Shown here piece after piece: positions 32,801-37,720 of a DNA stretch of 64,000 nt. Position numbers and translations under genes: made by a program. The notes below the pieces were generated by a model that was not told the DNA's origin, searched no databases, and saw only the letters and a program-made list of their open reading frames with translations. The DNA comes from an uncultured delta proteobacterium (GTDB taxonomy: Bacteria > Desulfobacterota > Syntrophia > Syntrophales > CAMTWB01): positions 44,261-108,260 of the forward strand of contig CAMTWB010000007.1 in the NCBI GenBank assembly GCA_947085375.1, written 5' to 3'. Position 1 is the first letter of the stretch; each line of letters begins with the position of its first letter.

Positions 32801-34992
32801 CTACAAGATATTGTTATGCGGTGACTGCCTTGGATGCCACGGGCAGCGAATCGGCCGCTAGCGCCCTGGCCTGTGCCAATACGGGGTTGACGGTGCCGGC
32901 CGGCCTGACGGCGATGGCGGCCTCAGCGACGCAAATCAATGTATCATGGACGGCAGTGGCGGGGGCTTCCGGTTATAAGGTATATAAAAACAGGGAATTG
33001 CAAGGGTCGGTCGTCACACCCGCCATCGTGGACGCCGGTTTGACAGCGAATACCCAGTACTGCTATGCCATTTCTGCTTTCGATGCAGCGGGCAATGACT
33101 CCGCGCAGAGCAGCCAGCTCTGTGTAACGACCCCGTCGCTTCCTGCGCCAGCAAGTATTGACCTGCTGGTCAGCAATCCCCAGCTCAATTCCGGCGGTGA
33201 AACACCTGTAACGATAACCGCTCTGGTCAAAGACAGTGGCAACCGGGCCCTGGCCAATCAAACGGTAACATTCACGGCGGACTCCGGGCTGCTGGTTGTT
33301 GCCAATCCCTTGACCAATGCCAGCGGCCAGGCGACGGCGACGTTAAATACCGGCGGTAACCAGAAAAACCGGATGATCACGGTTACTGCCAGCACTGGTT
33401 CTTTATCAGTACCCAAGAAGATCGATGTGGTGGGAACGGTCGTCACGATCACGGGACAGACGAATGAGGTTCTATTAAACGGTACGACAATTTTGACCGT
33501 GCAGCTAAAAGATTCCGCGGGGCGAGGCATCCCCGATCAAATCCTTGACTTGTCCAGCACCCACGGCAACACCCTGAACCCCACGACGGTGACCACCAAT
33601 GCCAGCGGGCAGGGCACGACAGTCTTTACGGCACTGGATATTCTCGGAAGCACTGCCGTCATCACGGCTACGTCCACGGCCATGAATGCAACCGGCGCCT
33701 TTAATATTAAAGTGCTAAACGATCCAACGGCAAAAACCCTGACCTTCAGTACTCCGCCTGCCGGCAAGGAGATTGCGATAAATACCAATGAACCAGTGAC
33801 TGTTCGTTACACCGATATTTCAGGTCCTATCGTGGGCGCCCAGGTCGATTTTTCCTCCTCACGGGGAACATTAAGCGCCCCGTCGGCCCTGACCAATGGC
33901 AGCGGGGAGGCCAGCCTGACGATTACTTCCACGAACGTCGGACCGGCGGTGGTGACGGCGTCCGTCGACGGCGGGCCTGCTGCGACCTTAGCGGTTGAGT
34001 TCATTGCCCCGACAGCGGCCAGGATAGACGTCCAGGCTGACCCGGCCATTATCGGCGTCAATCTCGCGGGCTCGACGACGCAGAGAAGCAGCATCGTGGC
34101 CATAGTCAGGGATGCAGAAAATAATTTAGTCAAGAATAAAACCGTAAATTTCAACATTGCAACTGATCCGAGCGGCGGCTCTCTATTGCCGAGTTCCGGT
34201 ATCGTCGTCACGGATAGTTTCGGCTCGGCCGTTGTGCAATTTGTGGCCGGCTTGTCGCCCAGTGGTCAAAGCGAGGTCAGGATCAGCGCGACGGTGGCCG
34301 GAACGGCGATTACCGCCAGTACGACCTTGACGGTGGCGCAGAAATCATTGTTTATCACCGTGGGGACGGGAAATGTCGTCATAAAGGCCGACCCGAACTT
34401 GTATCAGGTGGACTTCGCGGCCCTGGTGACTGATGCGGCCGGCAATCCCATCAAGGACGCAAACATTGCCGCCAGCCTGATGCCGGTCGTGTATATGAAG
34501 GGCGAGCACACATGGGGAGGGGCGGTATGGGCGCCAGCATATACGTTGACGTCGTCAAATCATCCCAGCCCACCGCCGCCCAATACCCCTTATCCCTGGC
34601 CGGGGTCACCGCCAAATTCCTGCGCGAACGAGGATCTGACTTTCTACAATGATCCGGCGAGGAAAGCCTCCTTGCTGAACGGCATCCTTGACCCTGGAGA
34701 AGACAACAACGGCAACAACCGGCTGGATCCAGGGGGTATTGCCTCGGTCACCCGCACGGCAACTACGGACGCAAACGGAGTCGGCAGGCTGACCGTAACA
34801 TATGCACGGGAATTCGCCTACTGGGTAATCGTCCGCCTGGATGTCCACGTCGGTGTAGCGGGTACGGAGGGGTCGGCGTTCACAACACTGCTCCTGCCCG
34901 GTGCAGGAGACGATTACAACGACCAATCGATCCGTCCGCCCGGGCGCGTGAGTCCCTTTGGTCAATCGGTTACATGCGCCGACAGCCAGTAG
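29881..34992 (+). CDS. Giant surface lipoprotein: N-terminal CarboxypepD_reg-like region, 9 FN3-like repeats, multiple Big (invasin/intimin-type Ig-like) domains
   Basis: 1703 aa with a lipobox (LLIGC). Nine units end in Y-C-Y...GNES...C. Big-type units follow, such as TVTFTADSGLL...TNASGQATATL. Confidence 0.8.
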   Translation: MGRLFSALKKNLFLLLVLSLLIGCGTGGLENAPSPSPSPSPTPPAGTTTITGYVVDGFIAGASVRAYQINANGTRGDAIGAATTTDANGRYTLNLNYTGPILVESTGGTHKDWATGVEKIAVTDKLSALMSNAKDAVTINITPLTHMASLRALQDMAVNKTAVATAIDAANTKIGEYFGGIDIIKDTPIDPTVANSASGISQKRIDYALILAGISQSALVNGLNPFSLAIALARDAEDGLFDGKQGTTQLTVVNANGGGTTNLSATAAKGDLGANINTFQNSATNKSGGAITTRITAGLSDPANTGVIRARPDIPSGFSVTAVSSTQINLSWSAPSGATGYNVYKGDVYLRSVTTTTASDTGLTPNTQYCYAISAYDVSGNESSRTSKFCTTTNVAPPPVPTGLTAAAASASQVGLTWTASAGASGYKIYRGGTLLKSVTQTAATDAGLAANTQYCYTVSAYDASGNESIQSSTVCATTNLPGPALPTALTVVAASSRQINLSWTASAGLPAAVGYKIFKNGAHLKSVPSTVTTIVEAGLTASTQYCYNVSAYDISGNESILTSTVCATTWNTPPPIPAGLTATIISTTQINLSWSASLGAANYRIYRNGVVHTVAATAYADTGLAANTRYCYTLTASDSTGSESDQSGQICATTPAIAPPAGFTAVAASSSQINLSWTAAAGAWGYKIYRGGTLLKSVTTVTATDAGLAASTQYCYAIYAYDGNGNQSLSSSQVCATTYNPPSAFPVSLTARAISTSSISLFWTASTGAASYKIYREGSAPPPPTSLSTSYADTGLNAATTYCYTVTAVDGTGSESAPSNRACANTGLLVPAGLTAAAKSESRIDLSWLAATGATQYRLYKNGASWRAVSALLTSDTGLLANTQYCYSVSSLNDSGNESAQSSQVCVTTNNTPPAVPTGLTAAAVTPGPGGVINLTWNASPGATIYKIYRDGSSAAMASQTITSYSDTGLAASTRYCYAVTALDATGSESAASALACANTGLTVPAGLTAMAASATQINVSWTAVAGASGYKVYKNRELQGSVVTPAIVDAGLTANTQYCYAISAFDAAGNDSAQSSQLCVTTPSLPAPASIDLLVSNPQLNSGGETPVTITALVKDSGNRALANQTVTFTADSGLLVVANPLTNASGQATATLNTGGNQKNRMITVTASTGSLSVPKKIDVVGTVVTITGQTNEVLLNGTTILTVQLKDSAGRGIPDQILDLSSTHGNTLNPTTVTTNASGQGTTVFTALDILGSTAVITATSTAMNATGAFNIKVLNDPTAKTLTFSTPPAGKEIAINTNEPVTVRYTDISGPIVGAQVDFSSSRGTLSAPSALTNGSGEASLTITSTNVGPAVVTASVDGGPAATLAVEFIAPTAARIDVQADPAIIGVNLAGSTTQRSSIVAIVRDAENNLVKNKTVNFNIATDPSGGSLLPSSGIVVTDSFGSAVVQFVAGLSPSGQSEVRISATVAGTAITASTTLTVAQKSLFITVGTGNVVIKADPNLYQVDFAALVTDAAGNPIKDANIAASLMPVVYMKGEHTWGGAVWAPAYTLTSSNHPSPPPPNTPYPWPGSPPNSCANEDLTFYNDPARKASLLNGILDPGEDNNGNNRLDPGGIASVTRTATTDANGVGRLTVTYAREFAYWVIVRLDVHVGVAGTEGSAFTTLLLPGAGDDYNDQSIRPPGRVSPFGQSVTCADSQ

Positions 34993-35115
34993 TCGAAGGT
35001 GCGTTAGCAAAGCGTAACGCACCTAAAACAAATGGTGCGTCCAGACGCACCCTGCATGCTGATGAAAAAATATTCTTAATGTTGTGGTTCAATCTGCAAG
35101 ATTGAACCAGCGGGG
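34991..35115 (+). repeat. Long cassette repeat, copy A (about 125 nt, three palindromes)
   Basis: AGTCG.AGGTGCGTTAGCAAAGCGTAACGCACC...GGTGCGTCCAGACGCACC...AATATTCTTAATGTTGTGGTTCAATCTGCAAGATTGAACCAGCGGGGG. It starts 2 nt inside the stop codon of the giant gene. Confidence 0.9.
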
Positions 35116-35135
35116 GAGGAGAATAAAAATACGTT

Positions 35136-35420
35136 ATGTTAGATACATATAAAGCCAGATTAAAGGGAAGCCGAGTAAAATGGACGGATGACCGTCCTAT
35201 CGCAGTATCTCAGGATCAGGAGATTGAAGTCTTGGTAACATTTCTGTATGAAATGAAGACCCCACCGGATATGCAAGCCCAACAAGGAGAACGTATGGCG
35301 CAATGTTTAGAGAAGATTGCGAGGACAGGAGGCATTCAGGGGATCACGGATCCTGTCGCGTGGCAACGGGAAATCCGAAAAGATCGTCTGGTCTATCCTG
35401 AAAACCACCATGATTCTTGA
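35136..35420 (+). CDS. Orphan antitoxin-like protein (VapB-type context)
   Basis: 94-aa ORF. The C-terminal DPVAWQREIRKDR-type tail resembles antitoxins paired with PIN toxins; this is from memory, not a search. Its stop overlaps a truncated MILD... toxin start. Confidence 0.45.
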   Translation: MLDTYKARLKGSRVKWTDDRPIAVSQDQEIEVLVTFLYEMKTPPDMQAQQGERMAQCLEKIARTGGIQGITDPVAWQREIRKDRLVYPENHHDS

Positions 35421-35441
35421 CAGTCGTAGGGTGGGGAATTA
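35409..35441 (+). pseudogene. Remnant of a PIN (VapC-like) toxin gene, cut after 4 codons at a repeat border
   Basis: ATGATTCTTGAC (MILD, a typical VapC start that overlaps the antitoxin stop) is followed immediately by AGTCGTAGGGTG. That sequence is the left end of the long repeat, and a stop follows. Confidence 0.4.
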
Positions 35442-35559
35442 GGGACACATCACTTATATCCATATTATCTTCCGGTTAGAACCGGGGATATGTCCCCGGT
35501 CTAATGCCTTGTATGAGCAGTATGGAGGTAAAGTTTATGGAAACAACCGGATTGACATT

Positions 35560-35682
35560 AGTCGTAGGGGGCGTTAGCAAAGCATAACGCACCTAAAACA
35601 AATGGTGCGTCCAGACGGCACCCTACATGCTGACGAGAAAATATTCTTAATAGTGTGGTTCAATCTGCAAGATTGAACCAGC
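35560..35682 (+). repeat. Long cassette repeat, copy B
   Basis: Same three-palindrome architecture. It is flanked on both sides by a 38-nt duplication (35524-35561 and 35685-35722) of the RBS and first codons of the downstream gene. Confidence 0.9.
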
Positions 35683-35697
35683 AAGGAGGTAAAGTTT

Positions 35698-35964
35698 ATG
35701 GAAACAACCGGGTTGACATTAGAGATACCGGGGGAGATTTTGGCTGCTGTCAAATTGCCGCCCCGAGAGATTGAACGGGAGTTTCGAAAGGAGCTTGCAT
35801 TGGCTTTGTACCAACGTGGAACCCTTTCGTTTGGCAAGGCGCGAACTCTGGCGCAGTTGACCTATTGGGAATTTGACGACTTGCTTGGGCAGCGTGAGAT
35901 CGTGCGCCATTATACGGATGATGATCTCCAAGAGGATATTCAATATGCCCACGGTGATAAGTGA
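35698..35964 (+). CDS. UPF0175-family antitoxin-like protein
   Basis: 88 aa. LALALYQRGTLSFGKARTLAQLTYWEFDDLL is a typical UPF0175 pattern. It overlaps the downstream PIN-like gene. Confidence 0.7.
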   Translation: METTGLTLEIPGEILAAVKLPPREIEREFRKELALALYQRGTLSFGKARTLAQLTYWEFDDLLGQREIVRHYTDDDLQEDIQYAHGDK

Positions 35965-36451
35965 TTCGTCAACATTGATCCATTTGGCCAAGATTGGTCG
36001 ATTGAATCTGCTGCGAAAGCTTTTTGGACGGATTGTCATAACACCGCGAGTCTGGATAGAAGTCGTAGAGCAAGGCAGTAGCCGCGCTGGAGCAACCGAG
36101 GTGGAAGTGGCCTGCGCAGATGGTTGGATAGAGATTATTGCTCCTGTAGATGCGATGATATTGCCTTTACTAAAACGTGATTTAGACGAAGGAGAAGCCG
36201 AGGTGATCGCCTTGGCGATTGAATGTAAGGCGGACATGGTTCTGCTGGATGAATGGGAAGCGCGCAGAATTGCGGAGGTATATAATTTGGTGAAGACTGG
36301 CATTATAGGAGTTTTGCTGCGCGGTAAGCAGGAAGGATACATTGGTTTTCTAAAGTCGGAATTAGATAAATTGCGAGGCCCCGGCGGATTTTGGATTGAT
36401 GAAGAATTATATCGGCGGGCACTGACCGCCGCAGGAGAGGACGGGGAATAA
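35945..36451 (+). CDS. PIN-like (DUF3368-type) toxin-like protein
   Basis: Starts MPTVISDSSTLIHLAKIGRLNLL, and contains DEGEAEVIALA. It overlaps the antitoxin-like gene by 20 nt. Confidence 0.7.
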   Translation: MPTVISDSSTLIHLAKIGRLNLLRKLFGRIVITPRVWIEVVEQGSSRAGATEVEVACADGWIEIIAPVDAMILPLLKRDLDEGEAEVIALAIECKADMVLLDEWEARRIAEVYNLVKTGIIGVLLRGKQEGYIGFLKSELDKLRGPGGFWIDEELYRRALTAAGEDGE

Positions 36452-36505
36452 ATAAAGGATGCCATTGCTTTTCTGACCCGCCAGGTGTCGGCGCAGGATG
36501 GGCAA

Positions 36506-36631
36506 AGTCGTAGGGTGCGTTAGCAAAGCGTAACGCACCTAAAACAGATGGTGCGTCAAGACGCACACTACATGCTGACGAGAAAATATTCTTAATAGTG
36601 TGGTTCAATCTGCAAGATTGAACCAGCGGGG
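36506..36631 (+). repeat. Long cassette repeat, copy C
   Basis: Near-identical to copies A and B. Confidence 0.9.
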
Positions 36632-36638
36632 GAGACCC

Positions 36639-36902
36639 GTGTTACCATATGCGATTGACATGTTTAAATATGCGATTTACTTTGAAAAAGATGTCCTTGC
36701 AAAACGACCATACCTGAAGAAGGACTGGTGTGAACGAGTCGTTTCCTCCAGAGAGCATATAGAAGAGCAACCTGATGGATGGTTTCGTTTTTGGGGTCAA
36801 GTCCCAGAATACGGAAACAAATATCTTCGCGTTGTGACACTTCCAGACCAGGAGACTATTCTCAATGCCTTTTTCGACCGAGATTTTAAGGAGGTGAGCT
36901 GA
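36639..36902 (+). CDS. DUF4258-like small protein (putative toxin partner of DUF2283)
   Basis: Small ORF ending ...YLRVVTLPDQETILNAFFDRDFK. The start is uncertain: GTG at 36639 or ATG at 36660. The ORF-track start lies inside the repeat. Confidence 0.5.
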   Translation: MLPYAIDMFKYAIYFEKDVLAKRPYLKKDWCERVVSSREHIEEQPDGWFRFWGQVPEYGNKYLRVVTLPDQETILNAFFDRDFKEVS

Positions 36903-36903
36903 A

Positions 36904-37116
36904 ATGAGACTTAGTTATCATGCTGGAACCGATTCGCTTTACATTCATCTTGTCGAGCGTCCTGGAGCGGAAGCCCGTGAAGTTGCTCCCGGGATTGTGG
37001 TCGATTTTGATGCTGAGGGAAAGCCAGTTGGAATAGATATTGAACATGCCCAGAATATTCTTGACCTTACAACCCTTGATGCCGAATCTCTACCAATAAA
37101 AGTCAAGGCTGCGTAA
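36904..37116 (+). CDS. DUF2283-family small protein
   Basis: 70 aa. YHAGTDSLYIHL...VDFDAEGKPVGIDIEHA is the DUF2283 pattern. It begins 1 nt after the upstream gene. Confidence 0.7.
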   Translation: MRLSYHAGTDSLYIHLVERPGAEAREVAPGIVVDFDAEGKPVGIDIEHAQNILDLTTLDAESLPIKVKAA

Positions 37117-37128
37117 TGATCTTTTGCT

Positions 37129-37151
37129 GGTTCAATCTTGCAGATTGAACC
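37129..37151 (-). repeat. Core palindrome copy (reverse orientation)
   Basis: GGTTCAATCTTGCAGATTGAACC, 13 nt after the DUF2283 stop. Confidence 0.9.
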
Positions 37152-37333
37152 ACGCTATGGAGAGGCAATTGCAAAAGTGCCAATATGTCATTTTCGCAAA
37201 GTTTTTGGGTAGGAATCCAGCGGTGCGCAACCTCTTGCAAAAGAGGCAGGGAGAGGACTTTTCTCTTGACAACTGACAACCGTATCAGGGTGCGTTTCGC
37301 CCCACGTTCGACACCCTCTGAGCTGAGGCAGAA

Positions 37334-37720
37334 TTGAATAAAGACGTTAAGAACTGGGTAGCTACCTCAAACTACGATATTCAAACGGCGGCCGCCATGT
37401 ATAAGGCGGGCAGGTATCTCTATGTCGTTTTTATGTGCCATCTCGCCGTCGAAAAAATACTGAAAGCGCTGTTGGCACAAAAATACCCGGAAGACCTGCC
37501 GCCCAAAATCCACAACCTGATTAAGTTGTTACAGAAACTAGAACTAACGCCGCCGGAGAATCTTAAGGATTTTTTACAGCGGATTGATAATGTCAGTCTC
37601 GTCACCCGTTATCCTGAAGACCTTCGAACGTTGTCCAAGGAATTCAATCGGGACATGGCAAAACGGATTCTTACTGAAACAAAGAGGATCATAAAGTGGC
37701 TCAAGCAACACTTGAAATAA
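37334..37720 (+). CDS. HEPN-domain protein (toxin component of a HEPN/MNT pair)
   Basis: 128 aa with a TTG start. It matches the HEPN pattern with an RxxxxH-type region (SLVTRYPED...), and overlaps the downstream nucleotidyltransferase. Confidence 0.7.
   Translation: MNKDVKNWVATSNYDIQTAAAMYKAGRYLYVVFMCHLAVEKILKALLAQKYPEDLPPKIHNLIKLLQKLELTPPENLKDFLQRIDNVSLVTRYPEDLRTLSKEFNRDMAKRILTETKRIIKWLKQHLK

Follow-up and report, generated by a model that had tools for sequence, protein, structure and literature searches.

Here we describe two scars of past rearrangement at the borders of a short repeat in a toxin–antitoxin island of an uncultured Syntrophales bacterium, within a window of 64,000 nucleotides (nt) of its genome (G000; 2.52 Mb, 51 contigs, 52.8% GC; the window is C7:44261-108260). 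At the first scar, a vapC gene for a PIN-domain toxin breaks off after four codons and two bases and is joined to the left end of the repeat; at the second, the ribosome-binding site (RBS) and first eight codons of a UPF0175 antitoxin gene stand on both sides of one repeat copy (Table 1). The repeat, approximately 125 nt in length, is a mosaic like the bacterial interspersed mosaic elements (BIMEs), composed of a doublet of GTAG-tagged repetitive extragenic palindromic (REP) hairpins, known as a REPIN, a linker and a dispersed 23-nt hairpin. We put at about even the chance that strand exchanges at the AG (C↓T) flanking the REPIN, of the type carried out by REP-associated tyrosine transposases (RAYTs), made both scars in an ancestor that carried the enzyme (here and below, an arrow marks a joint or cleavage point). 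Such exchange is favoured because the AG is conserved, a REP-flanked RAYT gene is present in the genus, the mosaic has spread locally in one orientation and a published model exists. Three related genomes, G001, G002 and G003, were used for comparison; G002 is a congener of G000.

The first scar lies at the end of a gene for a protein of 94 amino acids (aa), the TGA stop codon of which overlaps ATGATTCTTGACAG, the opening of vapC. This remnant runs into AGTCGTAGGGTG, which equals the opening 12 nt of the repeat copy downstream (copy C), and then into 90 nt that occur once in the genome (segment U); the joint reads GACAG↓TCGTAGGGTGGGG. An earlier note on this DNA had described a PIN gene start of 12 nt joined to the opening nucleotides of the repeat. 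The joint is as described and the positions given were right to within one base (a start of 35409 should be 35410), with the correction that 14 nt of vapC survive, because AG is common to both partners (it opens a serine codon, AGC or AGT, in vapC homologues). The crossover point is ambiguous within AG, and the part of the joint that derives from the repeat is thus its first 10–12 nt.

Homologous loci retain the toxin. The 94-aa protein has 13 homologues, those with 60–74% identity being used for downstream context, and at L004/L005 and L006/L007 an overlapping PIN gene of 126–139 aa that begins MIL(L)DSNIIIYAA lies directly 3′ of the homologue. The junctions align base for base: ATGATTCTTGATAGCAAT... 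within ...CCACCATGATTCTTGATAGCAATATT in L002, ATGATTATTGACAGCAAC... within ...ATGATTATTGACAGCAACATA in L006 and ...CCACCATGATTCTTGACAG↓TCGTAGGGTG in the window. The surviving AG forms the first two bases of a vapC serine codon (GAC AGC); judging by the length of the homologues, approximately 400 nt of vapC are gone from the window locus, and no cognate vapC was found elsewhere in G000. As full vapC genes starting MIL(L)DSN directly follow the 94-aa homologues, the earlier proposal that a PIN toxin was lost and its antitoxin-like partner left behind is borne out, and the alternative that the MILD reading frame had never been a full PIN gene does not hold.

We call the partner VapB-like on the basis of synteny in three mutually independent contexts from metagenomes, which points to an antitoxin role. 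As in VapBC modules and orphan antitoxins, the stop codon of a small upstream gene overlaps a PIN start (MILDSN...) and the toxin is gone with the partner retained. It differs from them in that the protein falls into none of the named antitoxin families (it matched nothing in Pfam or NCBIfam), and 14 nt are all that is left in the window of the overlapping downstream PIN gene. The 94-aa gene is missing in G001, G002, G003 and 37 further relatives. Segment U was considered as the 3′ end of vapC and rejected, as its three frames show, by eye, no PIN C terminus. At the closest homologue on a long contig (L002/L003 3275-3553), the downstream gene starts alike, diverges after approximately 55 residues and encodes 92 aa with no Pfam or PIN match; this is a second, independent case of toxin decay in which the partner gene was kept.

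At the second scar, the string GGAGGTAAAGTTTATGGAAACAACCGG(A/G)TTGACATTAG is present on both sides of copy B, at both of the positions reported earlier. The two 38-nt copies are identical at 37 positions, their single difference being at a synonymous position, and a direct-repeat scan aligns 35518-35561 with 35679-35722 at 93% over 44 nt. The downstream copy opens an intact UPF0175 gene, the product of which matches PF03683 on model positions 1–74 of 75 and which overlaps an intact gene for a DUF3368 (PIN-like) protein (PF11848 at 4e-11, with a weak match to the PIN-domain Pfam family PIN-TPR-GreABC). Arrangement and lengths of this pair match those of L024-L027. In the closest UPF0175 homologue (L023; 93% protein and 91% DNA identity), the gene start is uninterrupted and no repeat is present in the 203 nt upstream, the last 13–18 bases of which resemble the side of the upstream duplicate (GTATG-TCAGATT↓GGAGG versus GTATGAGCAGTAT↓GGAGG). 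The UPF0175 gene is missing in G001, G002 and G003, and strict and degenerate exact-pattern scans of metagenome contigs for the 38-mer found nothing. The upstream duplicate, with its RBS and ATG, reads into the REPIN as a stub of 16 codons (35537-35587), which could act as a leader open reading frame (ORF) ahead of the UPF0175 gene.

The two scars are probably linked. The 12-nt pair formed by the fragment after vapC (a) and its counterpart in copy B (a′) are 138 nt apart and are interleaved with the 38-nt pair (c and c′), which are 161 nt apart; simple insertion is therefore not the sole possible history. A scan of all hairpins and REPs of G000 (46 hairpin matches, both strands counted, plus the REP hairpins) for direct repeats of at least 14 nt on opposite sides within 300 nt returned the present case and one pair of another family's copies, leaving a single flanking repeat at a unique site. 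Because it is a one-off among the copies scanned, the 38-nt duplication does not reflect a rule of target-site duplication. Two of 80 loci of other genomes that carry the same REP (L062-L141) were inspected closely. In a metagenome-assembled genome (MAG) of the Desulfobacterales (L135 6853-7295), a 129-nt segment, 86% identical between copies, stands on both sides of the REPIN, and in a MAG of the Betaproteobacteria (L081 2403-2981) a 244-nt unit is repeated 2.4 times in tandem with the REP in each unit.

Alignment of the copies resolves the repeat, which had been compared with MITEs (miniature transposable elements with inverted repeats), into a composite of separable modules. The full mosaic is present as three copies (A, B and C) in one 1.6-kb stretch, in one orientation and nowhere else in G000. 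Its left 70 nt are found without the hairpin on contigs C37, C42, C45, C14 and C26, and the 46 matches to the 23-nt hairpin, GGTTCAATCTGCAAGATTGAACC, are spread over many contigs, each with a different upstream sequence; the hairpin alone has 15 matches where none are expected, which is not chance. The REPIN is 63 nt in length and consists of two GTAG-tagged REP hairpins in inverted orientation: GTAG with GGTGCGTTA-loop-TAACGCACC and, beyond a short spacer, GGTGCGTC-CA-GACGCACC with CTAC as the inverted unit. Copies B and C, like more than 10 sites elsewhere, have the 5′ GTAG and imperfect palindrome typical of REPs (GTAG-GGTGCGTTA-GCAAAGCG-TAACGCACC); in copy A the form is degenerate (GAAGGTGCG), and copy B carries private substitutions. 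The doublet, GTAGGGTGCG...CGCACCCTAC, has a predicted fold that pairs both ends (-44.2 kcal/mol, z -4.1). Approximately 12 REP or REPIN copies are dispersed over 7 contigs of G000. The same doublet is present in G002 and is much commoner there than in G000, with 78 matches to the repeats of the region; the REPIN and the hairpin of that genome are connected by different linkers or separated by a third module.

The mosaic resembles a MITE in being short, non-coding, multi-copy and structured. It differs in that no inverted repeat links its left end (AGTCGTAGGG) with its right end (GAACCAGCGGGGGAG), in the lack of a regular short target-site duplication and in having ends that are set by the GTAG/CTAC hairpins and the flanking AG/CT. 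Two other readings were dropped by eye: a sigma-54 promoter in the 23-nt hairpin, the GG–GC spacing of which is off by 1–2 nt, and an integron attC site, as the two ends of the repeat show no dyad symmetry with each other and its borders carry no GTTRRRY core (an integrase was not searched for). The 23-nt hairpin module nearly always ends in ...GAACCAGCGG followed by a purine-rich, RBS-like run, often 10–30 nt before a start codon, and may be a 5′-untranslated-region or processing element rather than a mobile repeat alone.

As had been noticed, AG↓TCG is the sequence at each of the four left junctions of the window. Elsewhere in G000, AGTCG is found on two copies on C37 and one on C42, and AGTTG on one copy on C45; overall, seven copies have AGTC ahead of the left arm and one has AGTT. 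An AG lies 2–5 nt 5′ of GTAG in 30/35 distinct copies of G002 (binomial p ~1e-11) and in 10/14 copies of G000, against a background of 0.25, and the intervening bases are variable. Since the doublet is symmetrical, its right end reads CTAC-N3-CT. On the complementary strand, AG becomes C↓T, a dinucleotide required by RAYT nucleases: cleavage by the RAYT protein TnpA-REP needs a central C↓T (PMC3333891, PMC8266576), and cleavage at the sites described here is predicted. Each of the three joints with a known native partner has AG, in vapC (GAC-AG-C), in UPF0175 (TT-AG-AG) and in the RBS (GG-AG-G), the last standing opposite the mosaic's own tail, GGGGG-AG. The left joint of copy B reads TTAG↓TCGTAGGG (TTAG↓TCGTAGGGGG), and copies A and C lose their likeness exactly after ...GGGGGAG. 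With AG at all informative junctions, the left end of the repeat is a defined point of recombination. The earlier reading of insertion or recombination thus stands as regards this left end, the removal of the toxin and a duplication that is not an ordinary MITE target-site duplication; it fails as regards a novel MITE-like element and the duplication, an idiosyncratic event, as a signature of another mechanism of transposition. At C37:31864-31885, a 6-nt tandem duplication of the REPIN left flank (AGTCGT↓AGTCGCAGGG; AGTCGT↓AGTCGCAGGGTGCG) is bounded by the A↓G of the flank and an A↓G inside GTAG.

The enzyme is found in the congener. Two proteins of G002 score 195 and 190 bits against the NCBIfam family NF047646, ‘REP-associated tyrosine transposase’ (cut-off, 80 bits), and the RAYT gene on contig C7 of that genome (C7:156-605) is flanked on both sides by GTAGGGTGCGTTAGCG...ACGCACC REP units, forming a REPtron. 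No cognate RAYT was found in G000, in which none of five Y1-transposase-like genes is of the cognate type or flanked by this REP; the best match to NF047646 scores 92 bits and belongs to a 288-aa type that these REPs do not flank, and the RAYT of G002 reaches 21% identity by tblastn against G000. Candidates were rejected on C1 (flanked by a different REP, CCCAGGGTTGCGGCG...), on C45 (adjoining a AATTAGGGACAG element) and at C19:62624 (a truncated fragment). As G000 is without a cognate RAYT, the activity of the repeat lies in the past and the enzyme must have acted in an ancestor.

Across the genus, the number of REPINs follows the presence of the enzyme: dozens of copies accompany two strong RAYTs in G002, G000 has no cognate enzyme and its copies are more diverged, and G001 has neither a REPIN nor a strong RAYT. 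The exact 30-nt REP GTAGGGTGCGTTAGC(R)AAGCGTAACGCACC turns up in genomes of several phyla, in at least 120 stretches overall, including those of Coleofasciculus (many copies) and other cyanobacteria, Desulfococcaceae, Syntrophales and other Desulfobacterota, Anaerolineae, and beta-, gamma- and alpha-proteobacteria; that the sequence is identical in different phyla suggests that the REPtron has spread horizontally. Orthologous intergenic regions of G000 and G002 (C40:19100-19240 versus L019; C8:6700-7440 versus L015) hold entirely different repeat modules, from which we conclude that intergenic mosaic elements turn over quickly in the genus. A clean empty site in relatives, sought as a check on insertion, was found for no REPIN, these regions being occupied by different repeats; nor did the searches turn up a close strain.

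The biochemistry of RAYTs suggests how the joints could have formed. These enzymes, also called TnpA-REP, and the REP, REPIN and BIME elements associated with them have been described previously (Nunvar 2010, PMC2817692; Ton-Hoang 2012, PMC3333891; Corneloup 2021, PMC8266576; GTAG-tagged repeats, PMC3733652). In vitro, TnpA-REP cuts single-stranded DNA on either side (5′ or 3′) of a REP, up to several hundred nt from the REP that it binds and with many cut sites spread across more than 400 nt around a BIME, and makes a 5′-phosphotyrosine link that a free 3′-OH can resolve (PMC3333891; PMC8266576). In one published scheme (model B), a unit between two cleavage sites is added in tandem, and local amplification sequesters fragments of flanking genes (PMC3333891).

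Under our preferred reading, the REP family described here would be the cognate substrate of such a RAYT, an HUH nuclease. In a first event, a C↓T in codon 5 of vapC would have been joined to the C↓T at the left flank of the mosaic, deleting the toxin gene and leaving its VapB-like partner. In a second event, a copy of the mosaic would have been placed after codon 8 of the UPF0175 gene, at TTA↓G, and its right end connected to the A↓G in the RBS of the same gene (GGA↓GG), 34–38 nt upstream; the RBS and first eight codons would stand on both sides of copy B because the right end was joined at this upstream point. The downstream copy keeps the antitoxin gene whole, which is probably why the outcome survived beside an intact PIN-like toxin gene, and this suggests that selection filtered the events. 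Three co-oriented copies within 1.6 kb would fit spread at a distance from a resident BIME. The anatomy and its joints, the toxin loss, the pairing of REP with RAYT in the genus, the conservation of AG and the one-off nature of the duplication are shown directly by the sequences; we infer the order of the events, the part played by selection and the action of a RAYT rather than of host replication. A stronger claim, to which we give well below an even chance, is that the joints are natural, base-resolved footprints of strand transfer by a RAYT, acting at C↓T sites remote from a REPIN already in place; one would be a deletion, and the other a mosaic copy that landed 130 nt off and took a gene start with it.

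Several points weigh against RAYT exchange as set out above. A 2-nt overlap at the joints is also expected from microhomology-mediated template switching, so that AG does not discriminate between the two, and the joint between fragment a and segment U (GGGTG↓GGGAAT) has neither AG nor CT. Unlike a simple insertion or deletion, the duplication would need extra synthesis, a step that is modelled. The interleaving of the 12-nt and 38-nt repeats fits tandem duplication at least as well as insertion, and the likeness between U and the upstream sequence of L023, which bears on what preceded the gene, is weak (the score of the upstream-only local alignment was reached by 59/500 shuffles). A cognate-type RAYT is missing from G000, the enrichment of long duplications flanking REPs is modest (4/80 loci versus 1.3% of random control positions in the same loci), and the joints are those of a draft assembly.

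Host replication errors, the main rival explanation, could have produced the same joints with no transposase; we regard this as possible and somewhat doubtful. Forks would stall at the hairpin-rich mosaic, for which strong folding is predicted, and the nascent strand would switch template at microhomologies of 2–5 nt (AG, GGAG); one or more complex events would then yield the vapC deletion, a templated stub of 10–12 nt, and a templated mosaic copy together with the 38-nt duplication. Every informative joint has 2–4 nt common to both partners, the mosaic copies are local and co-oriented with a donor template within 1 kb, and the joint between a and U, lacking AG, fits this explanation better than it fits RAYT exchange; the missing cognate enzyme in G000 and a duplication seen only once also speak for it. 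Template switching leaves unexplained why AG is kept 2–5 nt outside GTAG in the congener's copies with varying bases between, and why the joints use exactly this dinucleotide; it also requires either a single event with as many as four switches or several separate events at the same spot.

The same chemistry may instead have followed another history, which we likewise place well below an even chance. The mosaic would at first have lain directly upstream of the UPF0175 RBS, its left flank already fused to the vapC stub; a 161-nt unit of mosaic plus 38 nt, bounded by A↓G on either end, would have been duplicated in tandem, and the first mosaic would later have been mostly replaced by U, leaving 12 nt. 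The a and c pairs are interleaved as this history predicts, model B of PMC3333891 yields exactly such units, the betaproteobacterial locus L081 holds a tandem array of REP and flank, and copies A and C likewise sit upstream of their genes, so that one event would account for both the stub and the duplicate. The cost is an additional step in which 90 nt of unrelated sequence took the place of 113 nt, and the last 13–18 nt of U look, weakly, like the native upstream sequence of the closest homologue rather than a mosaic tail. If the mosaic was instead placed into a pre-existing arrangement of U, c and gene, with c re-created, then stub a would have had a separate origin, for example in a resident REPIN that was later mostly deleted.

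That two strain variants were stitched together at shared repeat k-mers during assembly is very unlikely. Repeats are classic places of misassembly and the genome is in 51 contigs, yet the novel joints TTAG↓TCGTAGGGGG and GGGTG↓GGGAAT need spanning reads to assemble, the 38-nt copies differ by a base, copy B has its private substitutions, and intact, collinear genes lie to either side. A true long target-site duplication, arising from transposition of the whole 125-nt repeat through some unknown mechanism, is barely credible: the arrangement of duplicate, element and duplicate and the case of L135, where a REPIN of the same family also has a long duplication on its flanks, speak for it, but no other copy scanned in G000 has one, the lengths differ (38 nt versus 129 nt), and the composite is confined to a 1.6-kb stretch and has no terminal inverted repeats across its ends.

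The element and its system are already known, and the scars are a clear example, good but unsurprising, of behaviour proposed for REP elements and RAYTs. Shared with these are the GTAG tag and imperfect palindrome, inverted doublets, combination with other modules into mosaics, a place between genes, a cognate RAYT with REPs on both sides (here in the congener) and a conserved C↓T near the REP. What differs is that G000 has about a dozen copies and its cognate RAYT was lost or never assembled, that the host belongs to the Syntrophales rather than the gamma-proteobacteria, and that the joints cut toxin–antitoxin coding sequence and the scars are kept at the level of single bases. Enterobacterial REPs sit at the join-points of large chromosomal duplications and deletions that arise by recombination between distant REP copies; REPs serve as breakpoints in both settings, whereas here the flank of a REPIN is joined to non-repeat coding DNA at 2-nt identity. 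With the IS200/IS605 family (IS608, ISDra2), RAYTs share HUH Y1 chemistry, subterminal hairpins, a guide tetranucleotide that picks the cleavage sites and the expectation of no target duplication. REPINs differ in having no transposase gene and in being cut on both strands at C↓T, and the scars described here are a deletion and a duplication rather than clean insertions.

REP dissemination was called poorly understood in a 2021 paper on TnpA-REP (PMC8266576). As the movement of REPs and REPINs in cells is still unsettled, the exact joints provide concrete substrates and predicted cut sites, and the genus offers a contrast between one species with the enzyme and many copies and another with the enzyme lost and few copies. 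If the joints are RAYT footprints, they would be in vivo evidence for local REPIN spread and gene-fragment pickup, which have so far been modelled from in vitro work, and selection on the antitoxin gene would be seen filtering the surviving outcomes. In other respects this is ordinary biology, repeat-associated decay and shuffling within a toxin–antitoxin island. For annotation, the ‘orphan antitoxin’ arose by toxin deletion, a 16-codon pseudo-start lies upstream of the real antitoxin gene, and the ‘cassette repeat’ of the island should be labelled a REPIN/BIME mosaic.

Table 1. Features of the island between positions 34990 and 37200 of the window
Feature	Positions	Strand	Remarks
Adhesin-like gene, 1703 aa	TAG stop at 34990-34992	+	
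Repeat copy A, mosaic	34991-35117	+	AG flank; start-degenerate REPIN TCGAAGGTGCG...CACCCTGC ending at 35055; linker; 23-nt hairpin 35086-35108; tail ...CAGCGGGGGAG
VapB-like orphan partner gene, 94 aa	35136-35420	+	Full length versus homologues; ends TGA
vapC (PIN toxin) remnant ATGATTCTTGACAG	35410-35423	+	ATG ATT CTT GAC AG; 4 codons + 2 nt
Fragment a, AGTCGTAGGGTG	35422-35433	+	First 12 nt of the left end of the mosaic, with flanking AG and GTAG
Segment U, 90 nt	35434-35523	+	Single occurrence in genome; unrelated to repeat
Duplicate 1 (c)	35524-35561	+	RBS, UPF0175 codons 1-8 and AG; dead 16-codon stub METTGLTLVVGGVSKA, then stop, running into REPIN
Repeat copy B, mosaic	35560-35684	+	AG flank; TC; REPIN GTAGGGGGCG...CACCCTAC (35564-35626); ATG-CT; linker; hairpin 35657-35679; AGCAA
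Duplicate 2 (c′)	35685-35722	+	Functional RBS and start of UPF0175 gene
UPF0175 antitoxin gene, 88 aa	35698-35964	+	Intact; PF03683 at 1.8e-25, full Pfam model
DUF3368/PIN-like partner gene	35945-36451	+	Intact; overlaps UPF0175 gene; homologues 170 aa
Repeat copy C, mosaic	36506-36633	+	Nearest to consensus; hairpin 36602-36624; tail ...CAGCGGGGGAG
Pair after copy C: unassigned 80-aa ORF and DUF2283 gene	Within 34990-37200		

Segment U has no relation to the mosaic. Its reading as a degenerate mosaic copy was rejected, with alignment scores at or below the shuffle mean, and tried as a MITE it offers just a 10-nt inverted repeat of 90% identity and a weak fold (z -2.0). Its first 27 nt or so (35434-35460, GGGGAATTAGGGACACATCACTTA) recur with 93% identity at C1:87482-87508 of G000, an intergenic site just 3′ of a cyclopropane-fatty-acid-synthase-like gene.

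No Rfam family matched in a scan of the window at gathering thresholds, and a promoter and terminator scan of 34900-37400 returned nothing in excess of shuffle expectation. Copy A starts within the TAG stop codon of the adhesin-like gene. The orthologue of that gene in G001 (82% identity; L013 2680-2951) has TGA at the same codon, followed by tRNA-Met, with neither the repeat nor the toxin–antitoxin island. A further repeat family of G000 with (T)AATTAGGGACAGCGCCCTATTA ends often forms MITE-like inverted pairs approximately 100 nt apart (C37:53889-53986, C25:59614-59695, C45:34537); on C45, one copy precedes the gene for the 288-aa Y1 transposase by approximately 90 nt, and G002 has a comparable arrangement (L056). 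A second island of like build is present at C37:29000-32800 of G000 (L183), where the end of a large secreted-protein gene is followed by a REPIN and then by toxin–antitoxin pairs that, from their ORFs alone, are VapB/VapC-like and HicA/HicB-like and are set apart by hairpin modules and another REPIN.

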